34,272 nucleotides of DNA, taken from positions 19,463 through 53,734 of the forward strand of contig VAXY01000013.1 of assembly GCA_005885085.1 (NCBI GenBank). Reading direction: 5' to 3'. The notes beneath the pieces are model-generated. The model was not told the DNA's origin and made no database searches. It saw nothing but the letters and a program-made list of their open reading frames with translations. Shown here in pieces: positions 1,740 to 30,804 of the stretch (positions are counted from its first letter, which is position 1; the number at the start of each line of letters is the position of its first letter). The stretch comes from Actinomycetota bacterium. Lineage in GTDB: Bacteria; Actinomycetota; Thermoleophilia; Gaiellales; Gaiellaceae. A program made the position numbers and the translations under genes.

Positions 1740-1928
1740 GTGGCGAAGGCCCCGGATGCGGACCGGCAAGCGCGGGAGTACATCGACCGCGTGGTCGAGT
1801 CGCACCGCAAGAACGGCTACGGGCTGCGCCTGTCGAAGCAGCGCTACGAGGAAGCGGTCGGCCGGGTCGCCGCCTCGTTCCGCGACCTGATCGACGCCTC
1901 GCGTGGCCGACCGACGTCCGGGGTCTGA
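1740..1928 (+). CDS. Hypothetical protein (62 aa)
   Basis: Balanced composition and starts 5 nt after the previous stop. Its last codons and stop (1926-1928) lie inside the GGGGTCTGACCCC repeat. Confidence 0.4.
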   Translation: MAKAPDADRQAREYIDRVVESHRKNGYGLRLSKQRYEEAVGRVAASFRDLIDASRGRPTSGV

Positions 1929-1934
1929 CCCCGG
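1918..1934. repeat. Single unit of the GGGGTCTGACCCC palindromic repeat family (CCGGGGTCTGACCCCGG)
   Basis: 8-nt arms around a central T. Sits between the convergent ends of ORF 1740..1928 and acnA (stop 1944). The same 13-mer recurs at 8648, 14712, 14728 (rc), 8666 (rc) and 30085. Confidence 0.85.
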
Positions 1935-1943
1935 CCCGTTGAT

Positions 1944-4646
1944 TTACGCGAGCAGGCGGCGCAGCACGTAACGCAGGATCCCGCCGTGCCGCAGGTACTC
2001 GCGCTCTTGCTCGGTGTCGAGGCGGACGCGGGCGCGGAACTCCTTGTCGTCGGCACGCACCGTCACCTCGCGCGCGTCGCCGTTCTCGACCCCGGCGATC
2101 GCGAATTCCTCATGGCCCGAGAGCCCGAGGGAGTCGGCGTTCTGTCCGTCCTGGTACTGAAGTGGCAGGATGCCCATCATCAGCAGGTTCGAGCGATGGA
2201 TCCGCTCGTACGACTCGGCGATTACCGCGCGCACGCCGAGTAGGTTCGGCCCTTTCGCCGCCCAGTCGCGTGAGGACCCGGTCCCGTATTCCTTCCCGGC
2301 AAGCACGATCAACGGCACATCCTCCGCGAGGTAGCGCTCGGACGCCTCGTAGATCGTCATCTCCTCGCCGCTCGGCACGTGCACCGTCCATGTTCCCTCG
2401 GAGCCGGGCGCCAGCAGGTTCTTCAGCCGCACGTTGGCGAACGTCCCGCGCACCATCACCTCGTGATTTCCCCGCCGCGAGCCGTAGGAGTTGAAGTCCT
2501 TGCGTTCGACGCCGTGCTCGACGAGATAGTGACCCGCGGGCGAGTCGGGCTTGATCGCGCCCGCCGGCGAGATGTGATCCGTCGTCACCGAGTCTCCGAC
2601 GCGAACGAGGCACCGTGCGCCCGAGATATCCTCGACGCGACCCGGCTCGCGCGACATCCCCTCGAAGTACGGCGGCAGGCGCACGTAGGTCGACTCCGGA
2701 TCCCAGTCGAACAGCGCGCCCTCCGGCACTGGTAGCTCGCGCCACGCGGGATCGCCAGTGAAGACGTCTGCATACGTTCGCGAGAACATCTCGCCGCGGA
2801 CGGCGCGGGAGATCGTCTCCTGAATCTCCTCGGCGCTGGGCCAGATCTCATGCAGGTAAACGTCGTTGCCGTCGCCGTCCTCTCCGATCGGCTCGTTCAC
2901 GAGGTCGACGTCCATCCGCCCGGCGAGGGCATAGGCCACGACGAGCGGCGGCGACGCGAGGTAATTCGCCTTCACCTCGGGGTGGATGCGCGCCTCGAAG
3001 TTCCGGTTCCCGGAGAGCACCGAGCACACGACCAGGTCGCCCTCCGCGACCGCGTCGGAGATCGATTCGGGCAAGGGGCCGGAGTTTCCGATGCACGTCG
3101 TGCAGCCGTACCCGACCGTCTGGAATCCGAGCTCGTCGAGATACCTCGTCAGGCCCGCCTGCTCGTAGTACTCGGTCACGACCTTGGAGCCTGGCGCGAG
3201 CGAGGATTTCACCCAAGGCTTGCGCTTCAACCCCCGTTCGACGGCGCTCTTTGCCAGGAGGCCGGCGCCCACCATCACCTGCGGGTTGGAGGTGTTCGTG
3301 CAGGACGTGATCGCAGCGATCACAACTGAGCCGTGCCGGAGCTCGACCTCCTCGCCGTCCACCTCGGCCCTGACAGCGTGTTGGCGTATCGCGACGGCCA
3401 CGCCGCCGTCCGTCTCGACCTTCGCGCCTTCCCTGATCTCGATGGTCGACGGCGGATCGCTCGCCGGGAACGACTCCGCGATCGCCTCGTCCCGTGCGTT
3501 GCCGTAGTCGACGCCGAAGGTCTCGAGCGCGTCGACGAACGAGCGCTTCGCCTCCCGCAACGGGACGCGGTCCTGGGGCCGGCGGGGCCCCGCGAGCGAG
3601 GGCTCGACCGTGCCGAGGTCGAGCTCGATCACCTGGGAGTAGTCCGGCTCGTGCTCGGGCTCGTGCCAGAGCGAGTTCTGCTTGCAGTACGCCTCGACGA
3701 GGGCGAGCCGCTCCTCGTCGCGGCCGGTCAGCCGCAGGTACTTGAGCGTCTCGTCGTCGACCGGGAAGAAGCCGCACGTCGCGCCGTACTCGGGCGACAT
3801 GTTCCCGATCGTCGCCCGGTCGGCGAGCGCCAGGGAGGCGAGCCCGGGCCCGAAGTACTCGACGAACTTCCCGACGACGCCCGTCTCGCGAAGGATCTGC
3901 GTCACGGTCAGCACGAGGTCGGTCGCGGTCGCTCCCTCCGGCAGCGAGCCGCCGAGCTTGAAGCCGACGACCTGCGGGATCAGCATCGACACGGCCTCGC
4001 CGAGCATCGCCGCCTCGGCCTCGATGCCGCCGACGCCCCAACCGAGGACGCCGAGCCCGTTGATCATCGTCGTGTGCGAGTCCGTCCCGACCAGCGTGTC
4101 GGGGAACGCCCAGCCGTCGCGTGACTCGACGACGCGCGCCAGGAACTCGAGATTGACCTGGTGGACGATGCCGGTGTTCGGCGGGACGACCTGGAAGTTC
4201 TCGAACGCCTGCTGTCCCCAACGGAGGAACGCGTAGCGCTCGCGGTTGCGCTCGAACTCGAGCTCCGCGTTCCGGAAGCGCGCCCGCGCCGTCGCATACT
4301 CGTCCACCTGCACCGAATGGTCGATCACGAGCTCAGAGGGAAGCTGTGGATTGATCTTCGCGGGATCGCCGCCCAAGTCCGCCATCGCATTCCGCATCGC
4401 CGCCAGATCGACGATCGCCGGGACGCCGGTGAAATCCTGGTGCAGGACCCGCGCGGGACGGTAGGAGATGGCATGCGAGGGCTCGGCCCGGGGATCCCAG
4501 CCGGCGATCGCCCGTGCGTCCTCGTCTTCGCCGTGCCGCAGCGCGTTCTCCAGCAGGATCCGGAGGGTGTAGGGCAGGCGCTCCGCGCCCTCGAGCCGCG
4601 AAATCTCGTAGCTGCGGTCGCCCGCGGTGAGGGTCGAGGAGCTCAC
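1944..4646 (-). CDS. acnA: Aconitate hydratase A
   Basis: 900-aa ORF with GTG start and full-length match to AcnA/IRP-type aconitase. Motifs include [37 protein letters not shown] and [12 protein letters not shown]. Confidence 0.95.
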
Positions 4647-8644: not shown

Positions 8645-8681
8645 GCCGGGGTCTGACCCCAAGAAGGGGTCAGACCCCGGC
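8645..8681. repeat. Dimer of the GGGGTCTGACCCC repeat forming a 16-bp perfect hairpin (loop AAGAA)
   Basis: gCCGGGGTCTGACCCC aagaa GGGGTCAGACCCCGGc. Lies between the stop of the collagen-like gene (8690) and the start of the Rrf2 gene; probably terminator-like. Confidence 0.9.
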
Positions 8682-8689
8682 CCTGGCTG

Positions 8690-9283
8690 CTAGCCGAAGA
8701 CGACGACGTAGAACGCGTGGTCCGAAGGCACTGCCGCGCTGTTCCGCGTCTGAACGAACAGGTGCGTGTTCGTGTCGAAACCCGTCGGGCAGGTCAGCCC
8801 TTCGCTGCCGCCCCCGCACGGGCCGGCGGTAGTCTCCCCCCGCTGGTCGGCTACGTCGCCTGCGTAGGCGCCGGACGCAAGGATCGGATGGCCGCTCACC
8901 GCGGCGCTGAAGGTCAGGATGTAGTTGCCGGAGCTCGGATGCGCCCCGAGCGCGATGCCGCCGGACTGCGCGGCGATCCCTCCGTCAGGGCGCACGAGCG
9001 CCCACCGCAAAGTCGCGCCTCCTCCCGCGGCTCCCGCCGGGCCTGCAGGTCCCGCAGGTCCCGCCGGCCCCGCCGGGCCCACCGGCCCGATCGCGCCCCG
9101 CGGCAGCTGACCGGACTTGAAGTCACGGGCCAGCAGGCTGTGATCCTTCACCTGCACCGTCGTGACGCTGTTCCGCGGCAACGCCTTACTGGCCGCGTAC
9201 CCGGTCCCCCCGAGCACGAGTAGCAGCGCGATGCACCCGATCACCATGGCCGGGGACGGCCGCAGTCGTTTGAACCACCTCAT
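8690..9283 (-). CDS. Membrane-anchored protein with a short collagen-like G-X-Y repeat (197 aa)
   Basis: ATG 9283 is preceded by GAGGTGAGG. It has an N-terminal TM anchor (VIGCIALLLVLGG) and nine G-X-Y triplets (GAIGPVGPAGPAGPAGPAGPAGAAGGG; nt 9017-9097), then a C-terminal domain of about 110 aa. The upstream part of track ORF 8690..9439 was rejected. Confidence 0.7.
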   Translation of the reverse strand: MRWFKRLRPSPAMVIGCIALLLVLGGTGYAASKALPRNSVTTVQVKDHSLLARDFKSGQLPRGAIGPVGPAGPAGPAGPAGPAGAAGGGATLRWALVRPDGGIAAQSGGIALGAHPSSGNYILTFSAAVSGHPILASGAYAGDVADQRGETTAGPCGGGSEGLTCPTGFDTNTHLFVQTRNSAAVPSDHAFYVVVFG

Positions 9284-9371
9284 TCGCCTCACCTCACAGG
9301 GTCGTTTTCGGGCGATATCGCCGGAAACCGTAGGACGTACACCGTTAGAGCCGTGTAAAGGCCGCAGACAC

Positions 9372-10145
9372 CTATGTGCCTGAGCTCTCGGCCGCTTGCA
9401 CCGAGCGGACGAAGGTGACGAACAGCAAGCCGCCGGCAAGATTTCCCGCCACGGCCAGGCCGAGGTTCGCCAGCAGCTGCGAGAGATCGACGTCCGCGCC
9501 GTAACGCATGCCGAAGACGAGTTCGAGCGTGCTGACGATCGCGTGGTTGAACGTCCCGAGCAGGATCAGCGCCCCGGTGATCCAGGCCATCACGATGCGC
9601 ACGCCGAGGGAGTCCGCAGCGCCCTCGACGAACCAGGTCATCAGGGTCATCAGTGCGCCCGCGACGAGCGCGCTGAGGAACGACGTCAGCGTCGAGTAGC
9701 CCGCGATGTGCTCCGCGAGTGTCACCAGCGGCTCGCCGCTCCCGTCCGGAAGCACGCCGTGCGATGTCAGGATGACGGCCACGAGCACGCCGCCGAGGAT
9801 GTTGAGCACCAACGCGACGGCCCACAGCTCACCGAGCTTCAACCAGGAGCCGAGCCGGTCGCGGTCGAGGCCCGCGACGGGAATCAGGAAGTTCTCCGTG
9901 AAGAGCTCAGAACGCCCGACGACAATGAAGACGAAGCCGATGCCGAAGGCCACCGCGCCGACGAGGTGCCGTGCGCTCCCGTCGATCGTGCGCACGGCTA
10001 GCGCGTACGCCGCGACGCCGAACGCGACGTCGAAGCCGCCGACGAGCGCCGTCGCTGCCAGCTCGACTGCGGGCCGTCTGAGCCGTCGCTGCCCCTCTTG
10101 CCGCGTCTCCCGGTAGATCTGCTCCGGCTCACGCGCCGAAGGCAT
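9372..10145 (-). CDS. Formate/nitrite transporter (FNT) family channel, YfdC-like
   Basis: GRSELFTENFL and FNHAIVS motifs, six TM helices, 257 aa. The start ATG shares one nucleotide with the stop of the upstream LLM gene (TGATG). Confidence 0.8.
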   Translation of the reverse strand: MPSAREPEQIYRETRQEGQRRLRRPAVELAATALVGGFDVAFGVAAYALAVRTIDGSARHLVGAVAFGIGFVFIVVGRSELFTENFLIPVAGLDRDRLGSWLKLGELWAVALVLNILGGVLVAVILTSHGVLPDGSGEPLVTLAEHIAGYSTLTSFLSALVAGALMTLMTWFVEGAADSLGVRIVMAWITGALILLGTFNHAIVSTLELVFGMRYGADVDLSQLLANLGLAVAGNLAGGLLFVTFVRSVQAAESSGT

Positions 10146-11139: not shown

Positions 11140-14100
11140 ATGGGCTTCTCGAAGCTCGTCGAGTCGTGGCCGGTCGTACGGCAGTTTCGAGAGGGCGACC
11201 CGCTCGGGTTGGGCCGTGCCGTACGCTCGGAGCGCTCGCGGACGCTGACACCTCGCATCGACGAGGCAGATCAGGTGGCGCATTCGATCTGCCCGTACTG
11301 CGCCGTCGGCTGCGCCCAACTCGTGTACGTCAAGGACGGCGAGGTCGTCCAGATCGAGGGCGATCCCGCCAGCCCGGTCTCGCGCGGCCGCCTCTGCCCG
11401 AAGGGCGCTGCGTCCCAGAACTACGTCCAGAGCCCCTTGCGCGAATACAAGGTCAAGTACCGCCGGCCCTACGGAAACGCGTGGGAAGAGCTGCCGCTCG
11501 ACGAGGCGATGGACATGATCGTCGACCGCGTTGTCGGCACCCGCGAGGAGAACTGGCAGACGGAGAATGAGCAGGGCGATCCGGTGAGGCGCACGCTCGC
11601 GATCGGGAACCTGGGCGGCGCGACGCTCGACAACGAAGAGAACTACCTGATCAAGAAGCTGATGACGGCGCTCGGCGTCGTCCAGGTCGAGAACCAAGCG
11701 CGCATATGACACAGCTCCACGGTCCCCAGTTTGGGGACCTCGTTCGGCCGAGGCGGTGCGACGACCTTCCAGCAAGACCTGCAGTACTCGGACTGCATCC
11801 TGATCATGGGCTCGAACATGGCCGAGAACCACCCGGTCGGATTCCAATGGGTGATGGAGGCCAGGGAGCGCGGCGCGCAGGTGATCCACGTCGATCCGCG
11901 CTTCACCCGCACGAGCGCAATGGCGACAACGTGGGTTGGCATCCGCGCCGGCTCCGACATTGCCTTCCTCGGCGGGATCGTCAACTACATCCTCGAGCAC
12001 GGCCGCTGGTTCGACGAGTACGTCAAGACGTACACGAACGCACCGGTCCTGATCGACGAGAAGTACGAGGACACCGAGGCGCTCGACGGCTTCTTCTCCG
12101 GCTGGAACCCACAGGAGGGTCGATACGGCGAGTACGACATCACCACGTGGGCGTACGAGGGGACGGAGCCGCAGACCGCTCCCGGCTCGAAGGCGAGCCA
12201 CACCCGCGGCGAGCAGTCCGGACACGGCGGACACGGCGGCGGTCTCTCACACGGTGAGCCGCCCGAGGAGGATGAGACGCTGCGGCACCCGCGCTGCGTC
12301 TTCCAGATCCTGAAACGTCACTTCGCGCGCTACACGCCCGAGTTCGTCGCCGAGACGTGCGGCTGCACGCCGGAGGAGTTCACGGCCGTCGCGGAGGCGC
12401 TGTGCGCCAACTCCGGACGCGAGCGCACGAGCTCGATCGTGTACGCCGTCGGCTGGACGCAGCACACCGTCGGTGTCCAGATCATCCGCGCGGCGGCGAT
12501 CATCCAGCTGCTGCTCGGGAACGTCGGCCGTCCGGGCGGCGGCGTGATGGCGTTACGCGGACACGCGTCGATCCAGGGCTCCACCGACCTCGCGACGCTC
12601 TTCAACATCCTTCCGGGCTATCTCTCGATGCCGCAGTCCGACGCCAAGGGCGGCCTGAAGAAGTACATCGAGAGCGCCACCGCGCCGGCGGGCTGGTGGG
12701 GCCGGGCCGACACGTACATCGTCAGCCTGCTCAAGGCGTGGTGGGGGGCGGCGGCGACGAAGGAGAACGACTTCTGCTTCGAGTACCTGCCGAAGATCGA
12801 CGAGGACCACTCCGAGTACTGGACGTTCGTGCAGATGCTCGAGGGAAACGTCAAGGGCTACATCGTCGTCGGCGAGAACCCGGTCGTCGGGTCCGCGAAC
12901 GGGAGACTGCACGCGAAGGGCCTGACGAAGCTCGACTGGCTCGTCGTGCGCGACCTCGTCGAGATCGAGACCGCCGCGTTCTGGCAGGAGGCGCCCGACG
13001 AGATCGGCACGGAAGTCTTCTTCCTGCCGGCGTCGTCGCACGTCGAGAAGGACGGGTCGTTCACGAATACGCAGCGGCTCGTGCAGTGGCACTTCAAGGC
13101 CGTCGACGCGAAAGAGGACTGCCGTTCCGAGCTGTGGTTCTACTACCACCTCGGGCTCAAGATCCGTGAGCGGCTGAAGGGCTCGCAGGATCCGAAGGAC
13201 CAGCCGATCCTCGACCTCAGCTGGCACTACCCGACTCACGGCGAGCACAACGAGCCGAGCGCCGAGGCCGTGCTCGCCGAGATGAACGGCCGGGACGACA
13301 ATGGCAAGGCGCTGCCTGGCTACAAGCAGCTGAAGGCTGACGGCTCGACGGCGTCCGGGTGCTGGCTGTACGCGGGCATCTACGCCGACGAGGTCAACCA
13401 GGCCGCGCGCAAGAAGCCGTGCTGGGAGCAGGACTACGTCGCCGCCGAGTGGGCGTGGTCGTGGCCGGCGAATCGGAGGCTGATGTACAACCGCGCCTCC
13501 GCGGCCCCGGACGGGCAACCGTGGTCGGCGCGCAAGCAGTACGTGTGGTGGGACGCCGGGGAGAAGAAATGGACGGGCAAGGACGTCCCCGACTTCGACG
13601 AGCAGAAACCGCCGGACTACGAGCCGAGCGATGACGCGGAGGGCCCGGACGCCATCCGCGGCGACCATCCGTTCATCATGCAGTCGGACGGGCAGGGCTG
13701 GCTCTACGTCCCACAGGGGCTCCTCGACGGCCCGCTGCCGACGCACTACGAGCCGCACGAGTCGCCGTTCCAGAACCCGCTCTACAGCCAGAGCGCCAAT
13801 CCGCGCCGCCAGCGGTTCGATCGGCCCGAGGATCCGCAGAACGACCCGGATGGCTACCCGTACGTCGTGACGACGTACCGGTTGACGGAGCACCACACGG
13901 CCGGCGGCATGTCGCGGTTCGTGCCGTACCTCTCCGAGCTACAGCCCGCGATGTTCTGCGAGGTGCATCCCGAGCTGGCGCGCGAGCGCGGGCTCGTCCA
14001 CGGCGGCTGGGCGACGATCCGCACCTCCCGGGCCGAGATCGAGGCACGCGTGCTCGTCACCGACCGGATCAAGCCGGTGCGGTCGAACGGCCGCGTCGTG

Positions 14101-14227
14101 CACCAGGTCGGTCTGCCGTACCACTGGGGCTCACGACCTCGCGCACATGACGCTCGACCCGAACGTACACATCCAGGAGGTCAAGGCGCTCACGTGCGAC
14201 ATCCGGCCGGGACGGCGCACGCGATGA
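11140..14227 (+). CDS. fdhA: Formate dehydrogenase alpha subunit (molybdopterin, actinobacterial FdhA type) with in-frame UGA (Sec) at 11707-11709 and an apparent +1 frame change near 14128
   Basis: CPYCAVGCAQ 4Fe-4S motif. ENQARI-[TGA]-HSSTVPSLGTSFGRGGATT matches the active-site Cys/Sec position, and ORFs 11140..11709 and 11731.. share a frame. The C-terminal AHDLAHMTLDPNVHIQEVKALTCDIRPGRRTR* is read in the +1 frame and stops at 14225-14227, overlapping the fdhB ATG. Confidence 0.9.
11721..11739 (+). other. Candidate SECIS hairpin (GGTCCCCA gtt TGGGGACC)
   Basis: An 8-bp perfect stem with a 3-nt loop, beginning 11 nt after the UGA. This is the position expected for a bacterial SECIS. Confidence 0.5.
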
Positions 14228-15123
14228 GCGACTTCGCCACTCTCGTGGACCTCACGGGCGAGCCGGACGGTTGGTCGGAGACCTATGGCGACGAGACGCA
14301 GCCGCGCATGGGCTTCTTCACGGACACGTCGATCTGCATCGGGTGCAAGGCCTGCGAGGTGGCGTGCAAGGAGTGGAACGTGATCCCTGAGGACGGCCTC
14401 GTCTGGACCGGCGAGTCCTACGATCACACGTCGACGCTCGGCGCGAACTCGTGGCGGCACGTCGCGTTCGTCGAACAGAGGAAGCCGTTGCGCGGCGAGG
14501 ACGGCGGCGGAGACGCGCTCCGCTGGCTGATGTCGTCGGACGTGTGCAAGCACTGCACGCACGCCGCGTGCCTCGACGTCTGTCCGACGGGATCGCTCTT
14601 CCGCACGGAGTACGGCACGGTCGTCGTACAGGAGGACATCTGCAACGGCTGCGGCTACTGCGTCCCGGCCTGTCCCTTCGGCGTGATCGACAAACGCCAC
14701 CTGCCGAGGCCGGGGTCTGACCCCGCTGGGGTCAGACCCCAGGAGGACGGGCGCGTCTGGAAGTGCACGCTCTGCTACGACCGGCTCAAGGGCGGACACG
14801 AGCCCGCGTGCGCCAAGGCATGTCCCACGAAGTCGATCCAGTTCGGCGAGGTCGACGAGCTCCGCGAACGTGCCGACGCGCGGCTCGCGAAGCTCCAGGC
14901 CGAGGGTTGGAACGGACCGCAGCTGTACGGACGCGATCCCGGTGACGGTGTCGGTGGTTTCGGCGCCTTCTTCCTGCTGCTGGACGAGCCCGAGGTCTAC
15001 GGGCTGCCGCCGGATCCCGTCGTGGCGACGAAAAACTTGCCGGAGATGTGGAGCACGGCGGCAATCGCGGCTGGCGCACTCGTCGTCGGCGTGCTCGGTG
15101 CCTTCGTCGGAGGGTCCCGGTGA
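14224..15123 (+). CDS. fdhB: Formate dehydrogenase beta subunit (4x[4Fe-4S] ferredoxin-type, C-terminal TM anchor)
   Basis: CIGCKACEVACKEWN, CKHCTHAACLDVCP, CNGCGYCVPACPFG and CTLCYDRL...CAKACP cluster motifs. C-terminal helix AAIAAGALVVGVLGAFVGG. ATGA overlap with fdhA. Confidence 0.9.
   Translation: MSDFATLVDLTGEPDGWSETYGDETQPRMGFFTDTSICIGCKACEVACKEWNVIPEDGLVWTGESYDHTSTLGANSWRHVAFVEQRKPLRGEDGGGDALRWLMSSDVCKHCTHAACLDVCPTGSLFRTEYGTVVVQEDICNGCGYCVPACPFGVIDKRHLPRPGSDPAGVRPQEDGRVWKCTLCYDRLKGGHEPACAKACPTKSIQFGEVDELRERADARLAKLQAEGWNGPQLYGRDPGDGVGGFGAFFLLLDEPEVYGLPPDPVVATKNLPEMWSTAAIAAGALVVGVLGAFVGGSR
14712..14740. repeat. Dimer of the GGGGTCTGACCCC repeat (13-bp arms, loop GCT) located inside the fdhB reading frame
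   Basis: GGGGTCTGACCCC gct GGGGTCAGACCCC, translated in frame as G-S-D-P-A-G-V-R-P. Confidence 0.9.
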
Positions 15124-27211: not shown

Positions 27212-27240
27212 AGACTTAGTGGCTCAGAGCCACTAAGTCT
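27212..27240. repeat. Perfect palindrome aGACTTAGTGGCTC-A-GAGCCACTAAGTCt (14-bp arms), copy 1
   Basis: Seen directly. Lies in the divergent intergenic region between the CPA2 gene (start 27178) and the ligase cassette. About 48% GC in a roughly 70% GC context. Confidence 0.9.
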
Positions 27241-27754: not shown

Positions 27755-28794
27755 TCGAGCAGAACTTCGGACGCTCCTTGACGCTTGGGGTCGAGGAGGA
27801 GCTGATGATCCTCGACGCGGAGACGCATGCCCAGAAGGCGGCGAGTCACGAGCTGATCCCGGCGGTGGAAGTGCCGCGTGGTGCCGTGAAGACGGAGCTG
27901 TTCCAATCCGTGATCGAGCTCAACACGGACGTCTGCGACTCACCGGCCGACGCCGCGGAGGTCCTGAGTAGCCTGCGGCGTAGCACGACGGACGCTGCGC
28001 AACGGTTGGGCTACGTGATCGCGGCGGGTGGGTCGCATCCGTTCGACACCGTGTCCGAGCAGCCGATCGCGGACAACCCCCACTACAGGAAGTTCGTCGA
28101 CTACGCGGGCCGGGCAGCGAGGCGCCAAGGCGTGAGCGGGCTGCACGTGCATGTCGGCATGCCTGATGCGGATTCATGTCTCCGGGTGCTGGAGCTCGTT
28201 CTGCCCTGGCTCCCGCTCGTGCTGGCGCTCTCCGCGAATTCGCCGTGGTTCGAACGCGAACGCACCGGGCTGAAGTCGACACGCGCCGAGATCCTCGGGT
28301 TGCTGCCGCGACACGGCGCGCCTCCGCATTTCGGTTCGTGGCACGAATGGGAAGAGCTGGTCGACACCTTCGTCCGTTCAGGCGTGGCGAGCGGGTACAC
28401 GGCTCTGCACTGGGACATTCGCCCGCATCCGACGCTGGGGACACTCGAGATCCGGGTTCCGGATCAGCCCACGTCGCTGATCACGACCACCCGCTTTGTC
28501 GACCTGTTGCACGCGCTCTGTCGGTGGGCGCTCGACGAGACCGCGCGCAAGCCGCTTTCGAGGGCGATCTACGAGCAGAATCGCTGGGCAGCGTCGACCT
28601 ACGGCCCGGGAGCGGAGCTGATCGATCCGGACGATGCCCGGGCCGCGAGCGTTCCGGATCTCTACCGGGAGCTCGTCGGCATGATCGGCCACGATCCGAA
28701 CCTCGACCCGACCGTCTGCGAGGCCGACCGGCAACTCGAGTTCGAGCGGCCGGAGGAGGCGACGGCGGACCTGGTCGAGCGCTCGATAGCCTGA
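27751..28794 (+). CDS. ybdK: Carboxylate-amine ligase, glutamate-cysteine ligase family 2 (YbdK-like)
   Basis: GTG 27751. LTLGVEEELMILD, KTELFQSVIELNT, GLHVHVGMPD and SANSPWF...TGLKSTR are GCS2/YbdK family motifs. 347 aa. Confidence 0.85.
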   Translation: MIEQNFGRSLTLGVEEELMILDAETHAQKAASHELIPAVEVPRGAVKTELFQSVIELNTDVCDSPADAAEVLSSLRRSTTDAAQRLGYVIAAGGSHPFDTVSEQPIADNPHYRKFVDYAGRAARRQGVSGLHVHVGMPDADSCLRVLELVLPWLPLVLALSANSPWFERERTGLKSTRAEILGLLPRHGAPPHFGSWHEWEELVDTFVRSGVASGYTALHWDIRPHPTLGTLEIRVPDQPTSLITTTRFVDLLHALCRWALDETARKPLSRAIYEQNRWAASTYGPGAELIDPDDARAASVPDLYRELVGMIGHDPNLDPTVCEADRQLEFERPEEATADLVERSIA

Positions 28795-28799
28795 CCGTC

Positions 28800-29021
28800 G
28801 TGCGTCGCGAGGAGACGATTCAGGTCAGCGGCATCCGCTGCGAGCGCTGCGTCCTGCGGCTCGGCAAGGTCCTCGAAGGGCACGACGGCCTGGAGACCGC
28901 GAACGCAAACCTGATCGGCGAGGTGTCACTCGCCTGGGACGACGAGCGAACGTCCCGCGAGGCGCTGCTGGAGGCGATGGCGCGCGGTGGCTTTCGGGAG
29001 TTAGTGGCTCAGAGCCACTAA
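28800..29021 (+). CDS. Heavy-metal-associated (HMA/CopZ-like) fold protein with a CxxC motif (CERC), 73 aa
   Basis: IQVSGIRCERCVLRLGKVLEGHDGLETANANLIGEVSLAWDD...LLEAMARGGF follows the beta-alpha-beta-beta-alpha-beta HMA pattern. GTG 28800 lies 5 nt after the ybdK stop. The last 7 codons and the stop lie in palindrome copy 2. Confidence 0.6.
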   Translation: MRREETIQVSGIRCERCVLRLGKVLEGHDGLETANANLIGEVSLAWDDERTSREALLEAMARGGFRELVAQSH

Positions 29022-29024
29022 GTC
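28998..29024. repeat. Palindrome GAGTTAGTGGCTC-A-GAGCCACTAAGTC, copy 2 (26/27 identical to copy 1)
   Basis: Seen directly. It contains the TAA stop of the HMA gene (29019-29021) and the TAG stop of the convergent small ORF (29020-29018). Confidence 0.9.
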
Positions 29025-29176
29025 CGTTCCGGCTCGCTTGCCTCTTTGATGCGGTTGCCGACGAGACCCGGCAGGGGCTCGTGGCCCTCGGGATCGCGGT
29101 TCTCCTCGTCCTCGCCCTGCTCGGCGGAGAGCTCCTCGCGAATCTCGGCGCGCCGCTGTTCGGTGTCCTTTTCCAT
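29018..29176 (-). CDS. Small acidic protein, 52 aa (below the ORF-track cutoff)
   Basis: ATG 29176 is preceded by GGAAAGGGG. Translation is MEKDTEQRRAEIREELSAEQGEDEENRDPEGHEPLPGLVGNRIKEASEPERT. About 84% G/C at third codon positions (counted by hand). Confidence 0.55.
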   Translation of the reverse strand: MEKDTEQRRAEIREELSAEQGEDEENRDPEGHEPLPGLVGNRIKEASEPERT

Positions 29177-30084: not shown

Positions 30085-30097
30085 GGGGTCTGACCCC
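30085..30097. repeat. Single unit of the GGGGTCTGACCCC repeat
   Basis: Lies between the convergent ends of rshA (30079) and the HTH-LytR_C gene (30109). Confidence 0.8.
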
Positions 30098-30108: not shown

Positions 30109-30804
30109 TTACTCGCCGGGTCCTCTCGCAGGACCGACGATGACAAAGAGCTGGCACGCCCCGCTGCCGCCGGGGAGGGGCTCTGTGGTGACGCCGAGCT
30201 GCTTCGCAAGCCGTAGGGCGACGCCCTCGCAGCGCGGCGGGAAGTAGACCGTCGTCTGCGGATACGAGAAGTTCGAAGCCCGGCCGACCTTCTTGATCGT
30301 GTAGCCGAATGCGCCGACGTGGCTTGCGACCTGACGCGTGTAGTTGATGTCGCCGCTGCCGTTCAGGACGGTCACCGCGATCCGCCACGGTGGCGGCAGG
30401 ATCGCGCCGCCGCTGCCCGAGGCGTGCTTGCCGCCGGAATGAGGGATCAGGAGCAGCGTTGCGAAGACCGCCAGCGCGAGCAACACGGCGCCGAGCACGA
30501 CGAGTCGGGGCAGCGGATCTCGCTGGACCGGCAACTGCGGAACCGGCAGGCCGGCGAGCTCTCGTGCCTCCCGGTTGTCGATTCCGAGCGCGCTCGCGTA
30601 GAGCACGGTTGCGGCGAGCGCGTCGTCCGGCCGCGGGAAGCGGTACACGCGTCCCTCCTCGAGCCAGCGCACCTCCTCCACGGAGATCCCGGCCCGCCGC
30701 GCCGTCTCCTCGACCGTCAGCTGCCGGTGCAGGCGCGCACGCGCGAGTGCTGACTCTTCGCCGGTCGGCTCGAGCGGCTCAACGAGCTCCATGCCGGTAG
30801 TCAT
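30109..30804 (-). CDS. HTH (XRE/RodZ-like) - TM - LytR_C domain protein (start ATG 30804, 30792 or 30846)
   Basis: LTVEETARRAGISVEEVRWLEEG forms the HTH, with a central TM helix (LVVLGAVLLALAVFATLLL). C-terminal VTVLNGSGDINYTRQVASHVGAFGYTIKKVG... is a LytR C-terminal domain. Confidence 0.7.
   Translation of the reverse strand: MTTGMELVEPLEPTGEESALARARLHRQLTVEETARRAGISVEEVRWLEEGRVYRFPRPDDALAATVLYASALGIDNREARELAGLPVPQLPVQRDPLPRLVVLGAVLLALAVFATLLLIPHSGGKHASGSGGAILPPPWRIAVTVLNGSGDINYTRQVASHVGAFGYTIKKVGRASNFSYPQTTVYFPPRCEGVALRLAKQLGVTTEPLPGGSGACQLFVIVGPARGPGE

Follow-up and report, generated by a model that had tools for sequence, protein, structure and literature searches.

A palindromic repeat of a mostly intergenic family translated within the variable FdhB linker of a soil Gaiellaceae bacterium

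Results

A palindrome of a repeat family is read in frame within fdhB

The window analyzed here is a stretch of 34,272 nt from an Actinomycetota bacterium of the Gaiellaceae (assembly GCA_005885085.1, contig VAXY01000013.1, positions 19,463-53,734), compared with fetched relatives and metagenome loci that are designated by L numbers. Its fdhB gene, which encodes the iron-sulfur subunit of a formate dehydrogenase, contains two 13-nt arms that form a perfect inverted repeat around a 3-nt spacer (GGGGTCTGACCCC-gct-GGGGTCAGACCCC, 29 bases, 14712-14740). This palindrome is probably the core copy of a normally intergenic repeat resembling repetitive extragenic palindromic (REP) sequences, kept as a tolerated passenger in a permissive loop of the protein. 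The present analysis established (i) that the palindrome belongs to a repeat family, (ii) that this family has an intergenic bias, (iii) that the linker hosting it is hypervariable, (iv) that this linker was colonized repeatedly, (v) that the palindrome was lost with a recombination patch in one relative and (vi) that it decays in others.

The fdhB frame (14224-15123) reads the palindrome as PGSDPAGVRPQ (14710-14742) without any stop codon. A first-pass annotation of the window had described such an in-frame inverted repeat, and it was right on both counts, since the arms are 100% complementary and the frame is not broken. The strong mRNA hairpin that it had announced is also predicted, with a folding energy of -39.9 kcal/mol in context and z = -3.2 against shuffled sequences. 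The bases located 3′ of the stem are AGGAGGACGGG and do not include a T-run, so this stem is not like a classical intrinsic terminator; a terminator scan found no terminator-like site at 14712-14740, the U-tract of intrinsic (Rho-independent) terminators being absent. The copy does not have the structure of a miniature inverted-repeat transposable element (MITE; terminal inverted repeats, or TIRs, with a target-site duplication, 70-300 bp) either, since no direct repeat was found at its borders. Public RNA runs hold at most 10% of the fdhB words, which is too little to read an effect of the hairpin on transcripts.

The palindrome, intact or slightly decayed, is found at the same place of fdhB in L081, L082, L209 and L205, which come from independent NCBI, ENA and JGI assemblies. 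Furthermore, Logan contigs from four soil runs match positions 14700-14745 of the window with no base difference and no indel, the other contigs carrying alternative linker variants.

The repeat family and its intergenic copies

Elsewhere in the window, the 13-mer is found with zero or one mismatch at 1920-1932, at 8648-8660 together with 8666-8678, and at 30085-30097 (Table 1). These three other sites are all non-coding, between genes or just past stop codons. The first-pass annotation had placed them at gene ends, at 1918, 8645 and 30085; the sites stand, with a shift of 2-3 bases for the first two. When up to two mismatches are allowed, the window contains 13 strand-matches compared to 1.4 expected, a number that none of 100 shuffles reached. 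The stem of the intergenic dimer at 8645-8681 extends to 16 bp (-44 kcal/mol, z = -7.6), and the right flank of the 30085 copy, TGTAGTTCGGTTTA, fits the flank consensus of the family, AGCAGTTCGG.

The number of copies is very uneven: six in 34 kb for the window (six units at four sites, three of these sites being intergenic), five in 21 kb for L081, 12 in 14 kb for L122, and none in the 80 other fdhB loci, which total 1.41 Mb and of which 106 kb belong to seven metagenome-assembled genomes (MAGs) of Gaiellaceae. Therefore, the family multiplied in particular lineages. A metagenome scan revealed at least 120 loci carrying the dimer, most copies being located just past stop codons. They come from soil, marine and freshwater contigs of 32-75% GC, belonging to Actinomycetota and to bacteria bearing an outer membrane. 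In the GC-rich subset, many copies have a stop codon at a distance of about 15 nt or less, at one end or at both. This subset has a partly palindromic flank consensus, ccgaAc.GCt-[13]-N2-4-[13]-aGc.tTTcgg, which leads to a full unit of about 48 bp (CCGAAC.GCT-GGGGTCTGACCCC-N2-4-GGGGTCAGACCCC-AGC..TTCGG) that L177 shows with 23-nt arms. Such an arrangement is that of REP-like repeats. Overall, dimer spacers range from 1 to 9 nt, mostly 2-4, and arms reach 16-23 nt at 8645-8681 of the window and in L177.

Two other kinds of palindromic elements occur in these genomes. A third palindrome family is present in the window at 27212-27240 (AGACTTAGTGGCTC a GAGCCACTAAGTCT) and at 28997-29025 (GGAGTTAGTGGCTC a GAGCCACTAAGTCC); the latter palindrome supplies the TAA stop codon (29019-29021) of the open reading frame (ORF) 28176..29021, whose final residues are thus repeat-encoded. 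A composite element of about 80 nt, made of several hairpins (a GGGGGAACC hairpin, a GTCCGC hairpin and a GGCCGC hairpin), is intergenic in L212 (6127-6211) and in L081 (2040-2098). In L212, it directly joins GGGGTCAGACCCC-AGCAGTT, which indicates that the families form mosaics similar to bacterial interspersed mosaic elements (BIMEs). Another association was observed in L187 (13552-13634) and L124 (616-685), where the 13-mer and a DnaA-box-like TGTGGATAA are fused within a 25-bp inverted repeat (GGGGTCAGACCCCTGTGGATAAGTC ... GACTTATCCACAGGGGTCTGACCCC); in L187, the fused element is MITE-like, with 81 bp in all and 25-bp TIRs.

The site located between the Rrf2 regulator gene and its neighbor carries a different hairpin in each lineage (window 8645-8681, L081 6143-6172, L212 6127-6211, L208 around 715-755): a 13-mer dimer, whose spacer is either AAGAA (window) or CGAA (the dimer of L081 differing from that of the window by its spacer), the composite element together with one 13-mer, or a palindrome of unrelated sequence, GCAGCCGCGGCTCG...CGAGCCGCGGCTGC. 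This suggests a turnover of hairpins at an intergenic site where one may be needed.

A literature search with the 13-mer and its 11-mer core returned unrelated primers and viral sequences only, and a BLAST search of the 49-nt consensus element against plasmids gave no match. Scans of viral contigs found the dimer once and two composition-matched control hairpins zero and zero times, numbers that are too low to judge any enrichment.

The palindrome lies in a long and hypervariable linker

FdhB is clearly related to Escherichia coli FdnH (1KQF chain B, E = 2.6e-47), and all of its 16 cluster cysteines are invariant across 110 sequences. It has the four cysteine motifs, the C-terminal membrane helix and the neighbor genes expected for an FdnH/FdhB-type beta subunit, with fdhA (molybdopterin subunit, selenocysteine) on one side and an NrfD-like fdhC on the other. 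Its score against TIGR01582 (171.5) is below the cut-off of 334.7, so FdhB is a relative and not an NCBIfam equivalog. The nearest species-level genomes are MAGs of Gaiellaceae with 78-80% protein identity; soil metagenome assemblies provide closer relatives (90-98%), among them L081, which is syntenic with the window.

The linker that separates the CPF motif from KCTLC is 14 residues longer in the window than in E. coli FdnH (1KQF_B). From motif to motif, the span is 21 residues in most Actinomycetota (for example CPFGVIDKREADGRVWKCTLC) compared to 35 in the window, and Gaiellaceae show spans of 28, 34, 35, 36, 37, 38, 39, 41, 42 and 56 residues. The linker sequences are mutually unrelated (TAERK, ADPPPVLGKK, FDPSPELLPIFGKK, KPDDAPLALPLLGKK, SSNDPPAEILGLQLGKK), whereas FdhB outside the linker shows 78-98% identity. 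The 120 closest homologues share 77-98% identity over the whole protein, yet their linkers are highly variable, and contigs from four soil metagenomes have many alternative fillings of positions 14684-14761. From this hypervariability, we infer that the linker is permissive.

The closest orthologues devoid of the repeat have linkers of 28, 34, 38, 39 and 41 residues, mostly as long as or longer than the 35 residues of the window and unrelated in sequence. Therefore, the palindrome fills about 10 codons of a linker that was already expanded, rather than adding 42 nt to a minimal loop. The first-pass annotation had estimated that about 14 residues (42 nt) were inserted. This estimate is correct in comparison with FdnH and with the basal 21-residue linker but not with the closest repeat-free orthologues. 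It had also considered that repeat-free orthologues with a loop of equivalent length and similar sequence would speak against an insertion: the alignment revealed equivalent lengths but no similar sequence. We also considered that all linker types of Gaiellaceae could be decayed palindromes; this was rejected, the types of 28, 34, 38, 39 and 41 residues having z values of about -0.25 to +1.4.

The same linker was colonized repeatedly

Four types of repeat-bearing linkers, deriving from three palindrome families, were identified among the DNA sequences of orthologues. The first type is that of the clade of the window, in which L209, L081/L082 and L205 share the layout of the window with point changes. 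The second type was found in L084 (85% protein identity), which carries both arms with a 2-nt spacer, read as LGSDPRGSDP, in another phase and at another position relative to the conserved codons. This fdhB copy carries the left flank of the family, CCGAACTGCT, and, in a tree built with the loop masked, L084 is nested among orthologues with 28-residue linkers. Most simply, the palindrome of L084 would thus result from a second, separate event.

The third type is that of L208 (5215-5295), whose 56-residue linker contains in frame a multi-hairpin element of about 78 nt, AGCTGGGGGAACCtcccGGTTCCCCCAG...GTCCGCttgcGCGGAC.GGCCGCttcGCGGCC. This element has four differences in 77 shared columns with the intergenic copy of L212 and five in 63 with that of L081, and the insert is flanked by a 7-nt direct repeat (CGCGGCC). 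The fourth type was found in L207, whose linker carries in frame a 21-mer, GAGTTAGTGGCTCAGAGCCAC, identical to the intergenic palindromes located at 27212-27240 and 28997-29025 of the window. Compared to shuffled sequences, the linkers of the clade of the window, L084 and L208 fold clearly better (z = -3.2, -3.5 and -2.8, respectively), the signal being weaker for L207 (z = -1.5). Taken as a whole, these sequence comparisons show at least four apparently independent colonizations of the FdhB linker by three intergenic palindrome families.

Loss and decay of the palindrome in relatives

L081, which carries the palindrome, and L083, where TPGDEPLALPLLGK takes its place, share about 99% identity across 4.6 kb outside a single tract. 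This tract spans about 230 bp and contains some 55 differences. It starts some 170 bp upstream of the loop, ends some 10 bp beyond it and, in L083, swaps the palindrome-bearing linker for a linker of the 39-residue type. Since the window agrees with L081 within the tract, the palindrome of L083 was lost when homologous recombination brought in a foreign tract.

In the clade of the window, the stem has an A for a C in L209, TT for CC in L081 and three substitutions in L205. Some of these changes also modify the encoded peptide (P to L, A to G, G to E, D to Y), and, in the copies of the relatives, both synonymous and non-synonymous changes have built up at roughly the rate of the background. None of the 13 stem pairs shows a compensatory double change among the four sequences, a number too small for a judgment on selection of the stem. 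At the sequence level, the changes observed in relatives fit neutral decay. The proposal of the first-pass annotation that the element could have been exapted is therefore unsupported, given the background rate of change in relatives and the lack of compensatory pairs.

The dimer inside other genes

In the window and the fetched loci, 140 dimers were found. Most lie outside long coding-like open frames, mostly just past stop codons, but 13 of the 140 are in frame in ORFs with a clear Pfam or PDB identity (Table 1). Besides fdhB, at least eight genes from different bacteria, with Pfam support, carry the dimer in frame, in all cases within linkers, tails or segments of poor conservation. One of the host genes encodes a TonB-dependent receptor, which implies an outer membrane; the dimer is therefore not confined to Actinomycetota. 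In L104, the four dimers of the RNase form two pairs located 72 nt apart, each pair adding about 33 residues (…KGSDPAGSDP…KKGSDPMGSDP… and …MGSDPVGSDP…MGSDPAGSDP…).

Among the three phases in which the 13-mer can be read, one contains a stop (GGG GTC TGA CCC) and two are open. The first arm encodes G-S-D-P in all 13 verified dimers and G-L-T-P in none of them. If both open phases were equally likely, this would occur in about 1 case out of 8,000, a value that becomes less extreme if the four dimers of L104 are not independent. This bias suggests either that selection favors the hydrophilic, turn-forming reading or that insertion prefers one phase. A long duplication around the dimer of the L177 RNase E/G gene was considered as a possible trace of insertion and rejected, since its copies are only 73% identical and hence old and unrelated.

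Table 1. Location of the palindrome, of its host gene and of the other copies of the repeat
Feature	Location	Strand	Context or basis
fdhB, FdnH-type four-cluster iron-sulfur subunit (299 aa, 16 cluster Cys, C-terminal hydrophobic helix)	14224..15123	+	homology, cysteine motifs
Hypervariable FdhB linker, H159-E174	14698..14745	+	between third Cys motif (CNGCGYCVPACP) and conserved DGRVWKCTLC
Left arm GGGGTCTGACCCC, itself a 6+1+6 palindrome	14712..14724	+	codons (G)GG TCT GAC CCC = G-S-D-P
Spacer GCT (hairpin loop, Ala codon)	14725..14727	+	sequence read directly
Right arm GGGGTCAGACCCC, exact reverse complement of left arm	14728..14740	+	GGG GTC AGA CCC = G-V-R-P
Single 13-mer	1920..1932	.	11 nt past stop of minus-strand aconitase gene (1944..4646)
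Intergenic dimer CCGGGGTCTGACCCC aagaa GGGGTCAGACCCCGG	8645..8681	.	between stop of minus-strand gene (8690..9439) and Rrf2 regulator gene
Single 13-mer	30085..30097	.	between convergent stops TAA 30077-30079 and TTA 30109-30111
Dimer in fdhB	window and L084		in frame
Dimer in GT4 glycosyltransferase, interdomain linker	L121		in frame
Dimer in UvrA	L187		in frame
Dimer in RNase E/G, C-terminal tail	L177		in frame
Dimer in CusB/HlyD-type protein, after metal-binding domain	L088		in frame
Four dimers in beta-CASP/metallo-beta-lactamase RNase	L104 4390-5344		marine contig, 55% GC
Dimer in TonB-dependent receptor, after signal peptide	L147		in frame
Dimer in ATP-grasp protein	L199		41% GC contig

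Discussion

Origin of the fdhB palindrome and alternative explanations

The first-pass annotation had proposed that an intergenic REP-like element landed in a loop of FdhB. Membership in a repeat family, translation and a variable linker all agree with this proposal, but a clean insertion into a minimal loop does not. Our scenario is the following. A REP-like family has multiplied in this Gaiellaceae lineage and one core copy would have reached the linker located between the third and fourth cysteine motifs. The copies surviving in the linker would be those that kept the frame and avoided the TGA-containing phase, a hydrophilic, turn-forming reading being perhaps favored. The surviving copy would be translated as a stretch of about 10 residues rich in Gly, Ser, Asp and Pro, in a linker that has no conserved residue within the clade. 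The insert is thus probably a neutral or nearly neutral passenger and not an adaptation. Translating ribosomes would normally melt the hairpin, which would have at most a minor effect on expression; given the location in a translated ORF and the missing T-run, a strong effect on transcription is not expected.

Arrival would have occurred by copy-and-paste from an intergenic copy, and two routes appear about equally plausible: (i) the action of a RAYT (REP-associated tyrosine transposase) or TIRYT-type HUH tyrosine transposase on single-stranded hairpins, or (ii) templated repair or ectopic gene conversion at microhomologies. Transposases of the first kind act on single-stranded hairpins without target duplication. 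The second route is suggested by the partial copies (core in the window, left flank in L084, array segment in L208), by the replacement of loop sequence and by the CGCGGCC direct repeat.

Several observations weigh against this scenario. The fdhB copy of the window has neither the family flanks nor a target-site duplication, every case replaces loop sequence rather than adding to it, and no sequence in the state immediately preceding insertion was seen. In the 213 fetched loci, the copies are not adjoined by any kind of transposase, mobility being deduced from their distribution only. AlphaFold2 models were too poor to place the linker on the surface of the protein (mean pLDDT of 38 with 23 sequences and of 56 with 110 sequences). 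Furthermore, a G-U pair is retained at three of the five stem positions that changed among the four sequences compared, which may reflect a weak constraint at the RNA level. It should also be emphasized that the copy of the window is perfect whereas those of its relatives are decayed, which could indicate a recent event or conversion, or some selection in this strain. Lastly, if the 29-bp deletion found in fdhA (see below) is real, the fdh operon of this strain may be decaying.

It is possible, although we consider it somewhat unlikely, that the strain inherited or imported a palindrome-bearing fdhB allele from other Gaiellaceae by homologous recombination, in which case the palindrome would say little about local activity of the repeat. 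Allelic replacement of the loop tract is indeed visible between L081 and L083, P0022 and P0025 have the layout of the window although they fall in another part of the tree, and alternative fillings of 14684-14761 abound in soil metagenome contigs. However, the window contains five further copies of the family, which is hence present in this genome. Moreover, such an import only bears on how the palindrome reached this strain and agrees with the capture of an intergenic repeat as the original event.

A function of the hairpin or of its peptide appears improbable. The hairpin could be an internal RNA element, either a site of pausing or termination devoid of U-tract or an RNase processing or stabilizing site uncoupling fdhA-fdhB from fdhC, or the peptide could act as a loop taking part in the function of FdhB. 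The perfect 13-bp stem of the window copy and its predicted stability (-39.9 kcal/mol, z = -3.2) would agree with this, as would the inner 9 bp of the stem, invariant in four lineages, the G-U pairs kept at three of the five changes and the G-S-D-P phase of 13 out of 13 verified in-frame dimers. The intergenic members also lie where terminators or stabilizers are expected, and the different hairpins found at orthologous sites suggest a need. However, L083 has an unrelated linker and many orthologues are devoid of palindrome, no compensatory double change was found and decay changes amino acids (P to L, A to G, G to E, D to Y). There is no T-run after the stem, and ribosomes unwind hairpins inside ORFs. 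The presence of three unrelated palindrome families in a single loop also fits tolerance better than a specific function.

The palindrome could conversely have arisen in place, a quasi-palindrome of the loop being perfected by template-switch mutation and its identity with the 13-mer resulting from convergence or chance. The loop is an indel hotspot, the common 39-residue linker starts with CCG GGA GAC (P-G-D), which resembles CCG GGG TCT GAC, and, as a hint, the only copies found in the 14.7 kb of L084 sit in fdhB. Such an origin is nevertheless very improbable: both arms exactly match intergenic 13-mers of the same window, L084 carries the family flank too, the stretches of 78 nt in L208 and 21 nt in L207 match intergenic elements exactly or almost so, and nothing unusual is seen in the folding of the common linker types. 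Lastly, an assembly or sequencing artefact has a negligible probability since, although chimeric joins can arise at palindromes and a suspicious 29-bp deletion lies nearby in fdhA, at least five independent assemblies (NCBI, ENA, JGI) share this layout with lineage-specific point differences and the Logan contigs of the four soil runs agree with the window at 14700-14745 without base difference or indel.

Comparison with known palindromic repeats

Intragenic REPs were described by Di Nocera, De Gregorio and Rocco (2013, PMC3733652). According to their section on these copies, REPs are occasionally found in frame in known genes, where they encode about 10-30 residues (20-30 for dimers), uvrA being a frequent host and recB having, in two Xanthomonas species, different REPs at about one position; such copies would be neutral, as suggested by the authors, since they occupy linkers or loops that are flexible. 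The elements found here resemble the REPs described there: they are short palindromes, mostly located downstream of genes and often forming inverted dimers, and uvrA is also a host in L187. They match REPs and REPINs in being short palindromes of many copies, mostly extragenic, whose units are paired in inverted orientation as a larger hairpin. In contrast, they lack the conserved GTAG or CGTC tetranucleotide of REPs, the unit beginning with GGGG and being flanked by the consensus ccgaAc.GCt / aGc.tTTcgg, and the 13-mer core is itself palindromic. Other differences concern the host, here an uncultured Gaiellaceae, whereas the hosts named for intragenic REPs in that account are mostly Proteobacteria (PMC3733652), and the host gene, which encodes an iron-sulfur subunit of formate dehydrogenase with one loop hit at least four times by three families.

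Rickettsia palindromic elements (RPEs) are selfish elements that are inserted in frame, translated and reportedly compatible with the fold and function of their host proteins (Ogata et al. 2000 as summarised in PMC10969869). As for RPEs, the palindrome studied here is located in frame within the ORF of a functional gene and translated (PMC10969869). However, RPEs are longer (about 100-150 bp), their conserved peptide has 30-50 residues and they are restricted to AT-rich, obligate intracellular Rickettsia (PMC10969869), whereas the elements found here are GC-rich, span 29-80 bp (29 bp in fdhB, 48 bp for the full unit), belong to free-living soil Gaiellaceae and are mostly intergenic. The composite of L212, L081 and L208 is a mosaic of hairpins like those located at the 3′ ends of genes, such as the BIMEs of E. 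coli and the terminator-like SPRITE of pneumococcus (PMC10969869), but it has no sequence relation with them and its hairpins are devoid of U-tract. Intragenic REPs and RPEs are established precedents, RPEs being the classic in-frame one, and the present case is a clear example of a known event and not a new principle. It differs from them by the soil Gaiellaceae host, the iron-sulfur subunit of a formate dehydrogenase as target, the tagless palindromic 13-mer and the colonization of a single loop by three families.

The inverted hairpin doublets and their lineage-specific abundance also recall the repeats associated with RAYTs (REPINs) and with TIRYTs (TnpA_REP subclass 2.1), as presented in the passages of PMC3733652 and PMC6006769 that deal with them. 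These passages report that repeats flanking TIRYT genes share the motif GGGG[AT][CG]A[CG] (GGGGWSAS) and that TIRYTs have a DnaA-type C-terminal helix-turn-helix (HTH) domain (PMC3733652, PMC6006769). The start of the right arm, GGGGTCAG, fits this motif, an 8-nt motif being weak evidence, and the DnaA-box-like TGTGGATAA that adjoins the 13-mer in L187 and L124 could be a candidate target of the DnaA-type domain of a TIRYT. However, REPINs usually have a length of about 100 bp and no RAYT or TIRYT gene was found near any copy here: there is no candidate ORF between copies, and a phmmer search of the 12,543 ORFs of these short loci gave no hit with one RAYT and one DnaA domain IV sequence as queries. 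RAYT genes are single-copy, so short loci cannot exclude one.

The GGGGTC(T/A)GACCCC dimers could be the mobile ends of a widespread family of elements mobilized by a conserved HUH transposase of the TIRYT type, with the DnaA-like HTH binding the box that adjoins some copies. Since only the turn-forming G-S-D-P phase, out of two open ones, is seen inside genes, these elements would repeatedly seed and remodel protein loops across bacteria, the FdhB linker being a hotspot whose hypervariability would be driven by breakage and repair of the palindromes. We regard this extended scenario as speculative and rather doubtful. The fit of a cross-phylum 13-mer with the TIRYT motif nonetheless provides a testable route to the substrates of this class of transposases.

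The FdhB linker offers a natural example of a non-coding repeat becoming protein, in which donor copies, repeated hits, stages of decay and one allelic replacement are visible. It also reveals that a linker of a respiratory iron-sulfur protein is highly tolerant to insertion, which could serve for the engineering of tags in FdnH-type subunits. For annotation, GSDPxGVRP or GSDPxGSDP peptides should be considered as a signature of repeat-derived sequence and not as a conserved motif, and hairpins within genes can break assemblies and gene calls.

Observations on the neighboring fdhA gene

The fdhA gene of the window (11140-14227) lacks 29 bp (ACGCGGGCTGACGAAGGGCGGGTCGGCGA) that are found in all six relatives compared. 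The gap follows ...TACCACTGGGGCTC, with a junction near 14130 (14125-14135), and throws the conserved C-terminus (DLAHMTLDPNVHIQEVKALTCDIRPGRR) out of frame. The main fdhA frame then runs into fdhB without any stop, leading to a predicted FdhA-FdhB fusion. Among public soil contigs covering this gap, one inserts the 29 bp and another is identical to the window up to 14135 and then diverges, which fits the undeleted form. The 29-bp gap could thus be either a rare variant or an error of assembly. An Rfam scan of the whole window gave no family at threshold, whether a selenocysteine insertion sequence (SECIS) or another one. Further upstream, fdhA has an in-frame TGA at 11707-11709, at the position expected for selenocysteine (...ENQARI*HSSTVPSLG...).

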